Made by a program: the position numbers and the translations under genes | DNA from: Promethearchaeota archaeon | GTDB taxonomy: Archaea; Asgardarchaeota; Lokiarchaeia; Sigyniarchaeales; SOKP01 | Length of the DNA stretch: 18,693 nucleotides | Direction: 5' to 3' | Assembly: GCA_011364975.1 (NCBI GenBank) | Contig: RDOE01000063.1 | Coordinates: 1-18,693 of the forward strand | Notes under the pieces: generated by a model | Databases searched by the model: none | The model's input: only the letters and a program-made list of their open reading frames with translations | What the model was told of the DNA's origin: nothing | Part shown: one piece after another, positions 5,179 through 10,223 of the stretch | Numbering within the stretch: the first letter of the stretch is position 1 | How the letters are laid out: the number at the start of each line of letters is the position of its first letter

Positions 5179-6752
5179 TTAAAAACGTTTTCCTAAAACT
5201 TGTTGCACTGCATTTCTTGCTCCAAGAGGTGTACCTGCTATTCCACCCCCAGATTCACTATATGCCCCAATAAACCATAAATTCTCAATTGGTGTTTTGT
5301 GAGGAGGATTTTTTTGCCCAATTATTGGTGCCAACCCTCCAAAACTATGACGAACTACATTTATGCGAGACTTGAAATCATCAGGAGTAAGGATTAATTT
5401 TGTTATTATGTGATCTCTCAAACCTGGAATATACTTTTCGGCTTCAATTAATAATCCTTCACTAAATTCTTCCTTTTTATCTGACCAGTTTCAATTAATA
5501 ACCTTTCACTAAATTCTTCCTTCTTATCTGACCAGTTTCCGTTTTTAAGCTCATGAGGGGCAATTGTGTATATGGTAACAGCATGTTTTTCCTTAGGAGC
5601 CATTTCAGGGCTGTGCATTGAAGGAATATAGATCAGAAACCCATCTTTCCCTTCGTGATAATTACCTTTTAAACAGTTATCAATTCCACCTTCAATATCA
5701 TAAGTACCATAGTAATAGCATAAGGGTTTTCTTTGATACTGTGAAGGATCAAAATCAATTCCAATATTTACAAAAAAAACTGATTCCATATAACTTAAAT
5801 TTTCTATATTTTCAATAAAATCTTTTGGTAGGTAATCTTGGCCAACCAAATTATAAAAAGTGTTTAATACTCCACCACTAGCGATTATTATATCTGATTC
5901 TTCAATGGTTTCATCCTCTAATTGAACAGCTACAGCTTTACCTTCTTTTATTATAATTTTAATGATTTTACTATCTGGAAAGATTCTTCCTCCATTATTC
6001 GTAATATAATCAACAAATGCTTTTACTAATTGTTCACATCCATTTCTGATGAAATGATAAGTGGGGTATTTTCCACCTTTAAATTCTATAGGAATTCTTT
6101 TTTCAAATGCAGTTTCAACGTTAAAACTAGGAATTCCTAATCCAAAAAATTGGCTTGGTCTTACGACCAAATCAGCTAATATACTTAAAAATACTGCTTT
6201 AAGTTTTTCTTCTTTAAAGAAAAAGTCCATTACTTGAGAGGCACTCCAATTGCTATATTTCTTAACTCTTAAGAACTTTAACAATAATTTTAACTTGAGA
6301 ATAAATGCTTTCAATCCTTTTGTAAAAGGTAATTGATTTCCAATATACATTATTGACATCATTCTATCATAAAATTTATAATATTGATTGAGTCCTTCAT
6401 TCTCAAATGGAAACATTTTTTTAAAGAATTCCCTTCTCCAATAAGGCCCCTCATATTCTTTAGGGTGCCATATTTGAAAATCAGGAAGAACTTGTCCTCT
6501 GTCATCATTTATAAGCTGAATCTTTTCAGATAGGCCTAATTCGGTCAAAATTTTACCAAGCTTTTCATGAGGTGCAAATCCTTCTAAAAGTAATGGGCCC
6601 ATATCCCATGAAAATCCATCCTGATGAATCGTTGCTGTTACTCCGCCTAATTCAGAGAATTGTTCATATATAATCACATTATGGCCCTCTCTAACCAGAT
6701 AAGCTGCAGCTGTTAAACCCGCAATTCCAGAACCAATTACAATTACTTTCAT
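5179..6752 (-). pseudogene. Phytoene desaturase (CrtI)-family FAD-dependent oxidoreductase, frameshifted by an internal 47-bp tandem duplication (track ORFs 5448..6752 and 5179..5421 are one gene)
   Basis: N-terminus has VIGSGIAGLTAA...EQ...GG...GFSWDMGP, with PSMHSPEMAP later. The downstream fragment continues EAEKYIPGLRDHI...LTPDDF...HKTPIENLWFIG...GGGIAG, a typical CrtI-family C-terminus. Removing one repeat unit gives 1527 nt, or 508 aa in one frame. The substrate cannot be determined from sequence. Confidence 0.85.
5443..5536. repeat. Tandem duplication, 2 x 47 bp, 3 mismatches
   Basis: 5443-5489 TTCAATTAATAATCCTTCACTAAATTCTTCCTTTTTATCTGACCAGT versus 5490-5536 TTCAATTAATAACCTTTCACTAAATTCTTCCTTCTTATCTGACCAGT, followed by TTC microhomology at 5537-5539. 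Confidence 0.95.
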
Positions 6753-6983: not shown

Positions 6984-7490
6984 ATGGATAAAAAAGTTGA
7001 ATATGTTCCATTTGTTGGCACTGTTGAGGATTATCTTTGCAGATCACCTTGGGATTTCTATAGCTGGGGTCATATTGCATTAGGAATTGCGTCGTTTTCG
7101 CTTCTTTCATTGATGATAACCATTACAGAAGCATTGATTGGTCCGGCAATTATTGCATGGTGGTTTATATTGTTATTAACTTTTTCAGTTGGGGTTATTT
7201 GGGAAATACTTGAAAATACGGTAATCCTTTGGTGGGGTTGGAGACCACATAATAGAAGAGATACTTTTGTGAATGCGTTTTGGGATATAATTTTTGTAAC
7301 TTGTGGTGGTGCATTCACTTGGTTATTAAAGTGGATTATAAAAGATTTAATTTCATTAGCAGGAAGATACTTCTATATAACAGCATTAACCTTTTTTGTT
7401 CTAGTAATGGTAGCATACTTTATAGGATTCTATATAACAAATAAAAACACTAAAAAAGCACGAGAAGAGCACCACAAGATAATAAGTTAA
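6984..7490 (+). CDS. Integral membrane protein, DUF2585-like (putative intramembrane metal-binding hydrolase)
   Basis: Four hydrophobic segments carrying the pattern WDFYSWGH...WEILENT...RDTFVNAFWD (D..H, WE..EN, D...N...D). The family assignment is from memory of this pattern. Confidence 0.6.
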   Translation: MDKKVEYVPFVGTVEDYLCRSPWDFYSWGHIALGIASFSLLSLMITITEALIGPAIIAWWFILLLTFSVGVIWEILENTVILWWGWRPHNRRDTFVNAFWDIIFVTCGGAFTWLLKWIIKDLISLAGRYFYITALTFFVLVMVAYFIGFYITNKNTKKAREEHHKIIS

Positions 7491-7500
7491 ATTAATAACA

Positions 7501-7512
7501 TCTTTCTTTTTT
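7501..7512 (+). terminator. Possible oligo-T archaeal terminator after the DUF2585-like gene
   Basis: TCTTTCTTTTTT begins 11 nt after the stop at 7490. This is a weak signal in AT-rich DNA. Confidence 0.3.
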
Positions 7513-7639
7513 ATCTAATTTCTTATTAACGATTTCAACCATTCTAAATGGGACGTTATACCCATTATAATCAATCACGAATAAATTAATTAAAATATCG
7601 AAACTAATTAAAATTATATAATTAAATACAATTAGATTT

Positions 7640-8323
7640 ATGCAAGTTAAAACTTACAATTTACTTAATGTTGGTGTCGGTGGTCAAGGAGTTATTAGAG
7701 CAGTACAAATGTTGATTTGCGCATTATCATCATAATAGCCAAATTACTCCATACTTAATGGAACAGTACAAATTCTCTCCTGGGCTGCTATGAGACAAGG
7801 TTATAAAGTAAGGACTGCAGAAACTCATGGTATGGCACAAAGGGGGGGTTCTGTAACCTCTTATCTTCGTTTTGGGGTTGATGTTGAGGGGCCCTTAATT
7901 CCAAGAGGTCATACTAATATAGTTTTGGCATTTGAAGCAAGCGAGGCTGTAAGATACTTTAACTATGCAGGTCCGGAGACTACATTTTTGATTAACGATT
8001 TAATTATGATTCCTCCAATGATTAACCAAATGGAGATGGATTACCCATCAAAAGAACAGATTCATGACTTTTTAAAAAAAGTCTCTGACAAGATTTATTT
8101 TATTAAAGCTGATGAATTAGCTTCAAATCTAGGTAATCCAAGAGTTATGAATGTATTAATGTTAGGTTTTCTTTTTGGTTCGGGAAATATTCCCCTAGAA
8201 AGAGAGAAAATCGAGGAAACAATTGTTGATTTTGTTCCAGAAAACGCATATGACATTAATCGAAAAGCTTTTCAATTGGGATATGATAATGGAATTAAAA
8301 TAAAAGAGGGTATATATGAATAG
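7640..8323 (+). CDS. iorB: Indolepyruvate:ferredoxin oxidoreductase beta subunit, interrupted; proposed join(7640..7708,7772..8323), 206 aa
   Basis: ATG 7640 reads MQVKTYNLLNVGVGGQGVIRAVQ, containing the family GVGGQG motif. After a 63-nt insert the same frame resumes ILSWAAMRQGYKVRTAETHGMAQRGGSV. The track ORF from 7790 lacks the conserved N-terminus. The stop overlaps the iorA start (ATGAATAG). Confidence 0.92.
7701..7773 (+). repeat. 10-bp direct repeat CAGTACAAAT flanking the iorB insert
   Basis: Exact copies at 7701-7710 and 7764-7773, period 63. Confidence 0.95.
7709..7771 (+). other. Candidate bulge-helix-bulge (BHB) intron, 63 nt, phase 0, in iorB mRNA
   Basis: Central 4-bp helix GUAC(7703-7706)/GUAC(7766-7769). 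3-nt bulges AAA(7707-7709) and AAA(7770-7772). Intron-side helix UGUU(7710-7713)/AACA(7762-7765). Exon-side helix AGAGCA(7697-7702)/UUCUCU(7773-7778) with one C-U mismatch. Contains in-frame TAA TAG (7733-7738). Confidence 0.75.
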
Positions 8324-10223
8324 ACCTTATTTTGCTGAAGATAATCCTGGAAAGCAAGTTTTAATGCTTGGAAATGAAGCGATTGCTCGTGGGATATTAG
8401 AAGCAGGCGTAATAATAGCTGCAGGATACCCTGGCACACCTTCATCTGAAATATTAACAACATTAGCAGAAATGCACCCATTTTTTCCCAAACTTATGTT
8501 AGAATGGAGTATAAATGAGAAAGTTGGGTTTGAAGTGGCTTATGGTGGTTCAATGTCTAATGTTAGATCTGTCGCGTGTATGAAACATGTTGGTCTAAAC
8601 GTAGCTTCTGATGCTTTTATGACCGCTTGCTATGCAGGAGCTCGTGGTGGTATGGTGGTTATTTCAGCAGATGACCCCAACTGTTTTTCTTCTCAGAATG
8701 AGCAAGATAATCGTTATTATGGACTTCATGCATTAGTCCCGGTTTTTGAACCTTCTACTCCACATGAAGCAAAAGAATTAATTAAGTATGCTTTTGAATT
8801 TTCTGAGGAATACCAATCAATTGTACTTTTTCGAACAACAACCCGATTAAATCATGCGCGTGCAGATGTAATCTTAGGAGATGTAAAGGAGATTAAAAGA
8901 GAATATGGGTTCGACTGGGATCGATCAAGATGGGTTTGCCTACCATCTCATTCTCGGATTTTACGAGTAAGATTACTGGAAAGATTAGAAGATATTTCTG
9001 AGTTTGCTGATGAATTTCCTTACAATCATCTAAAAATCTCTAAAGAAAGAATAAATGGTACTAGATATGGTTTTGTAGCTGCAGGAGTCCCTTATTCACA
9101 ATTGATGGATGCGTTAAAATATTTTGGTATTGAAGATAAGGTTTCCCTATTAAAATTGGGAATGGTATATCCTCCTCCAAAAAAATTAGTTAAAAAATTA
9201 TTTGATTCTGTTGATGAAATATTGGTGGTTGAGGAATTAGAACCATTTTTAGAAAATATATTGAAACAATTAGCATATGAAGAAGAAGTGTCAAGAGATT
9301 TAAAAATCCATGGAAAGGATTATTTTCCTCAGAACGGAGAATTTCCTGCGGAACTCTACTTTGAAATAATATCAAATTTGATTGGATTACCTTATAAAAA
9401 AGTAAAAGTGCCTGAAAATTTAATGATAATTCCTCCAAGATTACCAATTTTATGCCCTGGATGTAGTCATAGAGCCACATTTTACGCAATTAAAAAAGTA
9501 GAAAAAAAATTTCACACAAAATTCGTTAATTCATCAGATATCGGATGTTATACGTTAGCGGTTTATAAACCCTTGGAAGGGCTTGATACTGAAGTGTGTA
9601 TGGGAGGTTCAATAGGATTAGCAAATGGAATTTCAAAAATACAACCCAAAGAAAATCCGGTGTTAGCTATTTTAGGTGATTCAACGTTTTTTCATTCTGG
9701 AATTCCTGCTTTAATTAATGCGGTATACAATAACAATAATATTTTAGTTGTAATATTGGATAATAGATCTACTAGTATGACGGGGTTCCAAGATAATCCA
9801 GGTACAGGGATAAAAATAACTAAAGAGCCTGGAACTAAGATAATCATCGAAGATTTAGTAAAAGGATGTGGTGTTGCTCCAAATAATATATGGATTGAAG
9901 ATTCTAATGATTTACAAAAAATGATTGATAAGATGGAAGATGCAGTGAAAGCAGAGGGCGTTCGAGTATTCATTTCGAGACATACATGTTCTTTAGTAGA
10001 AATAAATGAAATGCGTTCTCAAAACATTAAACCTTCAATTGTTAAAGTTGATGAAGATAAATGTATTGGGTGTCTTATTTGTACTAATCAATTTGGGTGT
10101 CCTGCACTTAATTTTAATGAAGATTCAAAAAAGGCAGCTATTGATGATGTATCATGTCGAGGATGTAAAGTTTGTATAGATGTATGTCCTCAAAATGCAA
10201 TCTATGAGGAGAGCGACTCATAA
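8316..10223 (+). CDS. iorA: Indolepyruvate:ferredoxin oxidoreductase alpha subunit
   Basis: LGNEAIARG, GYPGTPSSEI, EWSINEKV, MKHVGLNVASD, SSQNEQDNR, LCPGCSHR, DIGCYTL, TPP-binding GDSTFFHSG...LDN, and two C-terminal [4Fe-4S] motifs (CIGCLIC...CP; CRGCKVCIDVCP). Confidence 0.96.
   Translation: MNRPYFAEDNPGKQVLMLGNEAIARGILEAGVIIAAGYPGTPSSEILTTLAEMHPFFPKLMLEWSINEKVGFEVAYGGSMSNVRSVACMKHVGLNVASDAFMTACYAGARGGMVVISADDPNCFSSQNEQDNRYYGLHALVPVFEPSTPHEAKELIKYAFEFSEEYQSIVLFRTTTRLNHARADVILGDVKEIKREYGFDWDRSRWVCLPSHSRILRVRLLERLEDISEFADEFPYNHLKISKERINGTRYGFVAAGVPYSQLMDALKYFGIEDKVSLLKLGMVYPPPKKLVKKLFDSVDEILVVEELEPFLENILKQLAYEEEVSRDLKIHGKDYFPQNGEFPAELYFEIISNLIGLPYKKVKVPENLMIIPPRLPILCPGCSHRATFYAIKKVEKKFHTKFVNSSDIGCYTLAVYKPLEGLDTEVCMGGSIGLANGISKIQPKENPVLAILGDSTFFHSGIPALINAVYNNNNILVVILDNRSTSMTGFQDNPGTGIKITKEPGTKIIIEDLVKGCGVAPNNIWIEDSNDLQKMIDKMEDAVKAEGVRVFISRHTCSLVEINEMRSQNIKPSIVKVDEDKCIGCLICTNQFGCPALNFNEDSKKAAIDDVSCRGCKVCIDVCPQNAIYEESDS

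Follow-up and report, generated by a model that had tools for sequence, protein, structure and literature searches.

Splicing of messenger RNA (mRNA) at a motif of the bulge-helix-bulge (BHB) kind has been described as confirmed for cbf5 only, though other cases were predicted (accessible text of PMC2738675). As far as their accessible sections go, two further papers cite only cbf5 papers for pre-mRNA (PMC5829648 and PMC6379350), and a 2025 paper on the archaeal splicing endonuclease still cites only cbf5 work for mRNA (PMC12397907). Here we analyse an insert of 63 nucleotides (nt) within iorB, the predicted gene for the beta subunit of indolepyruvate:ferredoxin oxidoreductase, in a stretch of 18,693 nt from a Promethearchaeota archaeon (contig RDOE01000063.1; the whole stretch is referred to here as the window). 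Our data indicate, with a probability that we put at roughly 85%, that this insert is a BHB intron removed from the mRNA by EndA, the splicing endonuclease, and RtcB, the ligase. A literature search of full texts without their supplementary files (which, for a 2026 preprint on transfer RNA (tRNA) introns, could include interrupted genes for proteins) turned up no description of a BHB intron in any protein-coding gene of Asgard archaea.

Like crenarchaeal cbf5, which is interrupted in Desulfurococcales and Sulfolobales, iorB would carry a short BHB-bounded intron within a protein-coding gene, tied to a two-subunit endonuclease and with a patchy distribution that points to gain and loss (cbf5 as described in the accessible text of PMC2738675). 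Unlike cbf5, the candidate introns reported here belong to the Asgard (Promethearchaeota) phylum and interrupt genes for an oxidoreductase subunit, a TopoVIB-like protein, a BcrAD/BadFG-type ATPase and ribosomal protein uS3. Whereas splicing of cbf5 was shown by experiment, we infer that of iorB from comparative evidence. Most Asgard tRNA genes are interrupted, by introns that were gained repeatedly, and in the accessible part of the preprint that reports this, protein-coding genes appear only as neighbours for matching loci (bioRxiv 10.64898/2026.10.13.758758). The BHB introns of these tRNAs have their presumed enzymes, motif and lineage in common with the iorB insert, while the host RNA of the latter is an mRNA. 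The exon half of the motif must therefore also encode protein and, since the spliced product is read by the ribosome, the length of the intron and the frame matter.

Two other systems resemble the iorB locus in part. In eukaryotes, HAC1 and XBP1 undergo unconventional cytoplasmic splicing by IRE1 and RtcB (accessible text of PMC5829648 and PMC13149111). That system has in common with the process proposed for iorB the protein-catalysed, spliceosome-independent removal of a short structure-defined mRNA intron and ligation of the RtcB type. Its endonuclease is IRE1 and not EndA, its stem-loop motif is a different one and it is regulatory, whereas no regulation was seen for iorB. T4 gene 60 is read by programmed translational bypassing; it also has an untranslated gap within the coding sequence, and the window resembles it in the matching codons that flank the gap. 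Unlike T4 gene 60, a second iorB insert (locus L034, described below) has no matching landing codon, and the conserved feature is the RNA structure of the junction.

The iorB insert and its junction structure

The window is contig C165 of G000, our label for its genome, an archaeal metagenome-assembled genome of 3.74 Mb in 200 contigs (30.6% G+C; estimated completeness 99%, estimated contamination 6%). An earlier reading of the same DNA, referred to here as the original prediction, had proposed a probable Asgard host, and the nearest named relatives are indeed Promethearchaeota, of an order that includes Lokiarchaeum ossiferum and Harpocratesius. The frame that opens with the ATG at 7640 specifies the conserved beginning of a gamma-type 2-oxoacid:ferredoxin oxidoreductase domain. 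When read through, it continues for 31 residues to TAA (7733-7735) and TAG (7736-7738); downstream of these stops the iorB frame reopens and encodes the remainder of the domain up to 8323. Gene callers would report iorB only as an open reading frame (ORF) of 177 amino acids from the ATG at 7790. That ORF matches Pfam POR over profile positions 17-173 of 173, with 110.7 bits against a cut-off of 27.4, and NCBIfam IOR_beta from profile position 25, with 143.6 bits and thus under the curated cut-off of 205.8. The intact orthologue at locus L009 also scores under 205.8 (187.7 bits), and IOR_beta is the best name.

The original prediction described a 63-nt insert with tandem stops whose junctions pair as helix, 3-nt bulge, 4-bp helix, 3-nt bulge and helix with one C-U mismatch; we found both the insert and this pairing at the positions it gave. 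Overall, 12 of 13 canonical positions of the motif are paired. The exon helix has 5 of 6 pairs, with C7701 opposite U7774 as its sole mismatch, the central helix pairs GUAC with GUAC between AAA bulges on each side, and all four positions of the intron helix are paired. Cutting after the second base of each bulge is the rule that agrees with the canonical tRNA 37/38 intron. Under this rule the predicted cuts fall at 7708/7709 and 7771/7772, and excision of 7709-7771 joins 23 and 183 codons into 206, with the junction ..RAVQ/ILSW.. (the slash marks the join). The claim that these cuts give an intact IorB of 206 amino acids also held, since the spliced protein is collinear, without gaps, with the uninterrupted N-termini of 29 of 29 orthologous loci.

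A full-length orthologue served as query against 154 genomes of the order. The 62 matches other than that of G000 (62/62; E <= 1.2e-51) start at query residue 1-6, and G000 gives the only match that starts at query residue 21. The N-terminus is also uninterrupted at L031, a paralogue that had been flagged for stops inside.

We then consider how readily such a motif arises. Motifs this good number 20,623 on the + strand of the genome, out of approximately 3.86 million start positions times 285 offsets, or about 2e-5 per register. Since only 11 registers at offset 63 restore IorB, the chance expectation at this site is about 2e-4. The insert is flanked by a 10-nt direct repeat at offset 63 (7701-7710 and 7764-7773), and here the caution voiced in the original prediction stands: given the direct repeat alone, the central helix and both bulges follow, as does one pair in either flanking helix. 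Independent of the repeat are seven further pairs and one mismatch.

A blastn-short comparison of 7690-7790 with the 3.74-Mb genome returned only the locus itself and chance matches of 13-19 nt, and no inverted repeat was found at the ends of the insert. A transposable element or miniature inverted-repeat transposable element with target-site duplication was considered and rejected, given the lack of further genomic copies and of terminal inverted repeats. No Rfam family matched 7300-8100 at E <= 1, and a tRNA scan of the window found none.

Homologous inserts and further interrupted genes

We asked whether the insert is present in independent DNA. The iorB stretch occurs in 20 DNA runs from six studies and in no listed RNA run, and four of the DNA runs were examined (X3, X5, X12 and X20). 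An X3 contig spans 7300-7974 with 0 differences, an X5 contig spans 7676-8300 with 1 difference, and both contain the insert; X12 contigs tile the insert, with a variant inside it (7741 A to G). These are independent Logan contigs from three studies, while X20 does not cover 7538-8183. The insert is thus genomic, being carried by contigs of three other studies. Insert-less contigs come only from diverged relatives, namely X12 record 4 (10 differences in 86 aligned bases) and X5 record 21 (3 differences in 38, with an unlike upstream flank), and no insert-less allele of the window strain was found among the contigs of X3, X5 and X12.

To find further interrupted iorB genes, 160 further loci were filtered for an uninterrupted glycine-rich loop, which 153 pass and seven fail. 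Two of the seven, L034 and L072, are truly interrupted. Two others, L050 and L133, are uninterrupted and have a GVGGDG variant of the loop, and the remaining three (L088, L102 and L109) are high-GC loci with long upstream open frames.

L072 lies on an 80-kb contig of another metagenome and contains the insert with two substitutions in its loop. It differs from the window at 109 positions in 3531 nt (3.1%), without gaps. Between the two, spliced iorB has 19 synonymous and 5 non-synonymous codon changes, which divide into 2 and 0 in exon 1 and 17 and 5 in exon 2; the corresponding counts are 34 and 10 for iorA, the gene of the partner subunit, and 10 and 4 for a neighbouring ORF. Since the iorB counts resemble those of iorA and the neighbouring ORF, iorB is under the same constraint as its neighbours while interrupted.

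L034 belongs to a second species, with 66% protein identity, and has a 29-nt insert at the identical codon (L034 1454-1482). The inserts of L034 and the window have an AUGUU start, a UAAUAG and an ACAGUAYAA end in common, and are therefore homologous introns, with a 34-nt length difference that falls in the loop. In L034, too, the cutting rule yields ..RAVQ/ILSW.. and, since 29 nt shifts the frame, read-through or a tolerated peptide insertion is excluded there. In L034 the second repeat copy has U for C, so that the repeat is imperfect, yet a G-U pair is retained in the central helix, which answers the caution about the direct repeat. Over the window, L072 and L034, 37 of 39 motif cells are paired, and displacing the partner strand by 1-3 columns leaves 28-67% paired; per helix, the paired cells are 14/15 for the exon helix, 12/12 for the central helix and 11/12 for the intron helix. 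The motif has three changes from G-C or A-U to G-U, each one-sided, including a change from G-C to G-U in the central helix of L034. In the alignment of orthologues proposed in the original prediction, the insert is absent from 29/29 loci, and the changes among the three insert-bearing sequences are one-sided, each to G-U.

Exon 1 of the window and of L034 match at 20 of 23 residues, with 9 synonymous and 3 non-synonymous codon differences overall and 9 synonymous and 0 non-synonymous within codons 6-23. In exon 2, 51 codons are identical, 70 differ synonymously and 62 differ non-synonymously. An exon cut off by stops or a frameshift would not be expected to retain coding sense in this way unless it is still joined to the rest of the gene. 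Relaxed selection, which the original prediction associated with a pseudogene, was not seen; the L072 and L034 counts place the exons under purifying selection with the insert present. In a tree of 75 rows, the three insert-bearing genes form one clade (support 99/80), and the path from the window to L034 is 0.68 changes per site. A single clade and a path of this length indicate that the iorB intron was gained once and then long retained.

We next asked whether other genes are interrupted in the same manner. In a census that makes no use of the motif, 2.27 Mb of the same-genus relatives G008 and G026 were taken, their ORFs were translated and aligned to G000, and then the reverse was done; 2012 relative ORFs were matched in G000 and 2448 G000 ORFs were matched in the relatives, with iorB as positive control. 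Beyond iorB, this gave three clear cases: a TopoVIB-like gene, a BcrAD/BadFG-type ATPase gene and, in G008, the gene for uS3. Their coordinates are given in Table 1 with those of the iorB elements. The suggestion that iorB may be one of a wider family is thereby borne out by three more interrupted genes of the same architecture, and comparison across species indicates that 7709-7771 is a genuine conserved BHB-type intron element, one of several.

The TopoVIB-like gene encodes 1107 amino acids with a Pfam Topo-VIb_trans match. For the G000 insert, the minimum-energy structure of an 81-nt fold is the exact motif with an 11-bp distal exon helix (z -3.6; 0/200 shuffles as good), and the cutting rule gives a junction of equal length to that of G008. 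A search of the family matched 123 of 135 genomes, with nine genomes of three genera starting at residue 18 or 19. Ten matches started near residue 100, and five of these were fetched: four are uninterrupted and that of G024 has an insert; G131 is at a contig end. In total, 10 genomes (the nine and G024) have inserts of 29-32 nt at codon 17/18. Across the nine genomes, 33 of 36 central-helix cells are paired; counted together with the first five intron-helix pairs, the figure is 72 of 81, against 9-39 of 81 with the partner strand displaced. The intron helix contains two-sided swaps, from GC to CG and from UA to CG.

The ATPase insert separates Pfam profile positions 1-135 from 137-271. Inserts of 27-35 nt are present in eight genomes of two genera, and three of the lengths are not multiples of three. 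The central helix (UGAY/GUCA) is paired in all 32 cells, the intron hairpins of 7-12 bp are unrelated in sequence and contain two-sided compensatory changes, and the cutting rule restores ..NDK/CAAGTG.. in 8/8. In G008, the uS3 gene lies downstream of uL22 and its insert separates the KH_2 and S3_C domains. The fold of this region has z -3.3, with 1 of 200 shuffles as good; we read it as a near-canonical BHB with one central-helix mismatch, and the predicted cuts would create an AUG for the Met that is seen in G000.

Table 1. Positions of the iorB elements in the window and of the further interrupted genes. Entries without a genome or locus label are window positions; h, H and h' are the exon-exon, central and intron helices.
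Feature	Position	Strand	Remarks
iorB exon 1	7640..7708	+	23 codons including the conserved G-x-G-G-Q-G loop; from translation
5' strand of exon-exon helix (h), AGAGCA	7697..7702	+	partner 7773-7778, 5/6 pairs
5' strand of central 4-bp helix (H), GUAC	7703..7706	+	partner 7766-7769
5' bulge, AAA	7707..7709	+	predicted cut 7708/7709, from motif geometry
Candidate intron, 63 nt	7709..7771	+	missing from 29/29 orthologues; single copy in genome
5' strand of intron helix (h'), UGUU	7710..7713	+	partner 7762-7765
Tandem in-frame stops, TAA TAG	7733..7738	+	within the intron; TAATAG also in the L034 intron
3' strand of intron helix (h'), AACA	7762..7765	+	partner 7710-7713
3' strand of central helix (H), GUAC	7766..7769	+	partner 7703-7706
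3' bulge, AAA	7770..7772	+	predicted cut 7771/7772, from motif geometry
iorB exon 2	7772..8323	+	183 codons and stop
3' strand of exon-exon helix (h), UUCUCU	7773..7778	+	partner 7697-7702
iorA, partner subunit	8316..10223	+	8-nt overlap with the end of iorB; TIGR03336
TopoVIB-like gene insert, 31 nt	G000:C200 45318-45348 (= L316 3519-3549)	-	frame-shifting, after codon 17
BcrAD/BadFG-type ATPase gene insert, 30 nt	G000:C126 18596-18625 (= L315 997-1026)	-	in-frame, contains TAG
Ribosomal protein uS3 insert, 30 nt	L301 18119-18148 (G008:C11)	-	two stops

The gene adjoining iorB, iorA, matches NCBIfam TIGR03336 (IOR_alpha) at 704 bits, above the cut-off of 650.9, and its product contains Pfam TPP_enzyme_C and 4Fe-4S domains. 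The gene that follows iorA resembles those of ADP-forming acyl-CoA synthetases.

We also observed two tandem duplications in G000. On the minus strand of the window, a 47-nt tandem duplication (5437-5530; 40/47 identical) shifts the frame of a FAD-dependent oxidoreductase gene and splits it into ORFs at 5448-6752 and 5179-5421, while the G026 homologue is one protein of 508 amino acids. Offset 47 gave no convincing BHB, and its best register has 4 central, 1 intron-side and 3 exon-side pairs. The gene may be a pseudogene, or the duplication may be a recent mutation or an intron in the making. A 27-nt tandem duplication at C1, approximately 5930-5957 on the minus strand (L317), has a TAA in its first copy, in a gene with 74% identity to a 208-amino-acid G008 protein, and no convincing BHB motif was found there either. 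Both may be ordinary mutations, or raw material for such introns. Relative to G000 proteins, G008 has two further candidate interruptions, with 297 extra nt near the C-terminus of a 771-amino-acid protein (C9 84615-84934) and 47 extra nt in a 680-amino-acid protein of 47% identity (C18 3221-3260).

Splicing enzymes and competing explanations

We also looked at which splicing enzymes G000 encodes. It has two EndA paralogues (C126 and C191), both above the TIGR00324 cut-off of 59.6, with 112 and 88 bits. In alignment with the fused two-domain enzyme, one paralogue matches the catalytic half and its counterpart the structural half. At what we take to be the catalytic positions, as read from the ORFs, Tyr, His and Lys are kept in one paralogue and not in the other. 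RtcB is encoded on C124 (554 bits). A catalytic and a structural paralogue fit the two-subunit type of EndA described for Asgard archaea, which has a loop linked to broad specificity (accessible text of PMC5829648). ARAGORN made only 22 tRNA calls in G000, a genome of 99% estimated completeness, and 13 of them have introns; introns that are non-canonical or multiple probably conceal many tRNA genes. A small number of calls, many with introns, agrees with the heavily interrupted tRNA genes reported for Asgard archaea (accessible text of bioRxiv 10.64898/2026.10.13.758758). A tRNA-His call on C129 with a 622-nt 'intron' may be spurious.

The sequences show the motif, its retention in a homologous intron of another length, selection on both exons, the presence of the enzymes and the sister cases, and from these we infer the cleavage and ligation of the iorB pre-mRNA. 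In the mechanism that we propose, the end of exon 1 and the start of exon 2 would pair with each other and with both ends of the intron in the pre-mRNA, forming the canonical helix, 3-nt bulge, 4-bp helix, 3-nt bulge and helix. The two-subunit EndA, made of the catalytic and the structural paralogue, would cut after the second base of each bulge, and RtcB would ligate the exons, with the intron probably released as a circle. The ribosome would then translate an uninterrupted indolepyruvate:ferredoxin oxidoreductase beta subunit of 206 amino acids.

Several observations weigh against this proposal. Folding energy does not single out the iorB motif: the minimum-energy fold of the window sequence (-20.9 kcal/mol, z -1.1, 27/200 shuffles as good) has the exon and central helices without the intron helix, and the full BHB motif lies 2.6 kcal/mol above that minimum. 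At L034 (z -0.3) the central helix is missing from the minimum-energy fold, which lies 5.3 kcal/mol below the BHB motif. The outermost exon-helix pair is lost in L072 (7697 A to C), and iorB has no two-sided compensatory change among its three sequences, two of which are nearly identical. A strict-motif scan of G000, in which BHB matches also had to pass an 'interrupted open frame' filter and parallel pairing served as the decoy, re-found iorB and gave 2984 matches against 2888 for the decoy. With no excess over the decoy, the BHB motif alone predicts nothing, and the homology-based census was used instead. The genome scan for BHB-split genes envisaged in the original prediction thus did not discriminate in its strict form, and further cases came from homology.

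The 3' end of the intron (7755-7773) also matches the end of exon 1 (7692-7710) at 16 of 19 positions, and this likeness together with the 10-nt repeat may also fit an origin by local duplication. This brings up the explanation that a recent inactivating insertion or local duplication made iorB a pseudogene and that the motif is a by-product of the direct repeat, as might also be supposed from the two other G000 genes that are broken by plain tandem duplications without a convincing motif, and from the absence of the insert in 62/62 other species representatives. The insert is nevertheless older than the split from L034, given the clade support and path length above, and both a strain diverged by 3.1% and contigs from three studies carry it. 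Both exons are open and under purifying selection, and neighbouring iorA is intact and above its curated cut-off; we consider a pseudogene improbable in the extreme. That the 63 nt are not in the DNA of the organism at all, an assembly artefact, could be suspected of a 200-contig metagenome-assembled genome with 6% estimated contamination, but the Logan contigs of three studies bridge the insert with 0-1 differences, X12 has a single-base variant within it and the 80-kb L072 contig has it with two substitutions. We regard an artefact as practically negligible.

Translation offers two other ways of using the locus with the insert still in the RNA. Exon 2 could serve as a 177-amino-acid protein from the ATG at 7790, in which case iorB would be N-terminally truncated or in two pieces, and exon 1 would be useless or would encode a 31-amino-acid peptide that acts in trans. 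This ORF starts cleanly at an ATG and covers most of the POR domain, and selection on exon 2 alone would fit as well. Exon 1, however, is itself under purifying selection (over codons 6-23, L034 differs by 9 synonymous and no non-synonymous changes) and retains the glycine-rich loop common to every orthologue examined, and L034 exon 2 begins right after a stop with no start codon at the junction, its first ATG being 8 codons in. Since a truncated or two-piece iorB also leaves the conservation of the junction motif and the three similarly built genes unexplained, we consider it very unlikely. Slightly less credible still is programmed translational bypassing, with take-off at GUA-CAA and landing on the identical GUA-CAA 63 nt downstream. 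The identical 10-nt take-off and landing sites of the window and an insert length that is a multiple of three are what bypassing would predict, but the landing copy in L034 is GUA-UAA, which would put the Gln-tRNA onto a stop triplet or have the Val-tRNA resume on UAA, and the same C to U change retains a G-U pair of the RNA helix. There is no stop directly after the take-off codon, the first being 8 codons later, and the TopoVIB-like and ATPase inserts lack matching end codons while having covarying hairpins. Removal of the insert as a BHB intron is thus the explanation that we prefer.

Proposed protein-spliced introns in Asgard genomes

We lean towards the view that Lokiarchaeial Asgard archaea have a standing, evolving population of protein-spliced mRNA introns, including in core genes (uS3, the TopoVIB-like gene and metabolic enzymes), which escape gene callers and which, like the tRNA introns, undergo gain, loss and changes of size. 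Our comparative evidence extends BHB mRNA splicing to Asgard archaea and to four unrelated genes, and it suggests that mRNAs are routine substrates of the tRNA-splicing machinery in this lineage. Annotation will present such genes as truncated, as split or as pseudogenes, and functional genes may therefore be under-counted when metabolism is reconstructed from Asgard genomes. The predicted junctions and circular introns are simple targets for reverse-transcription PCR or metatranscriptomics, also in cultured relatives should these have introns of this kind, and the loci provide a testable system for the origin and persistence of introns in coding sequence, in the archaeal lineage nearest eukaryotes. 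If our reading is true, the closest known archaeal relatives of eukaryotes already have obligatory splicing of mRNAs by EndA and RtcB; such splicing would depend neither on group II introns nor on the spliceosome, and may be regulable like that of HAC1/XBP1.

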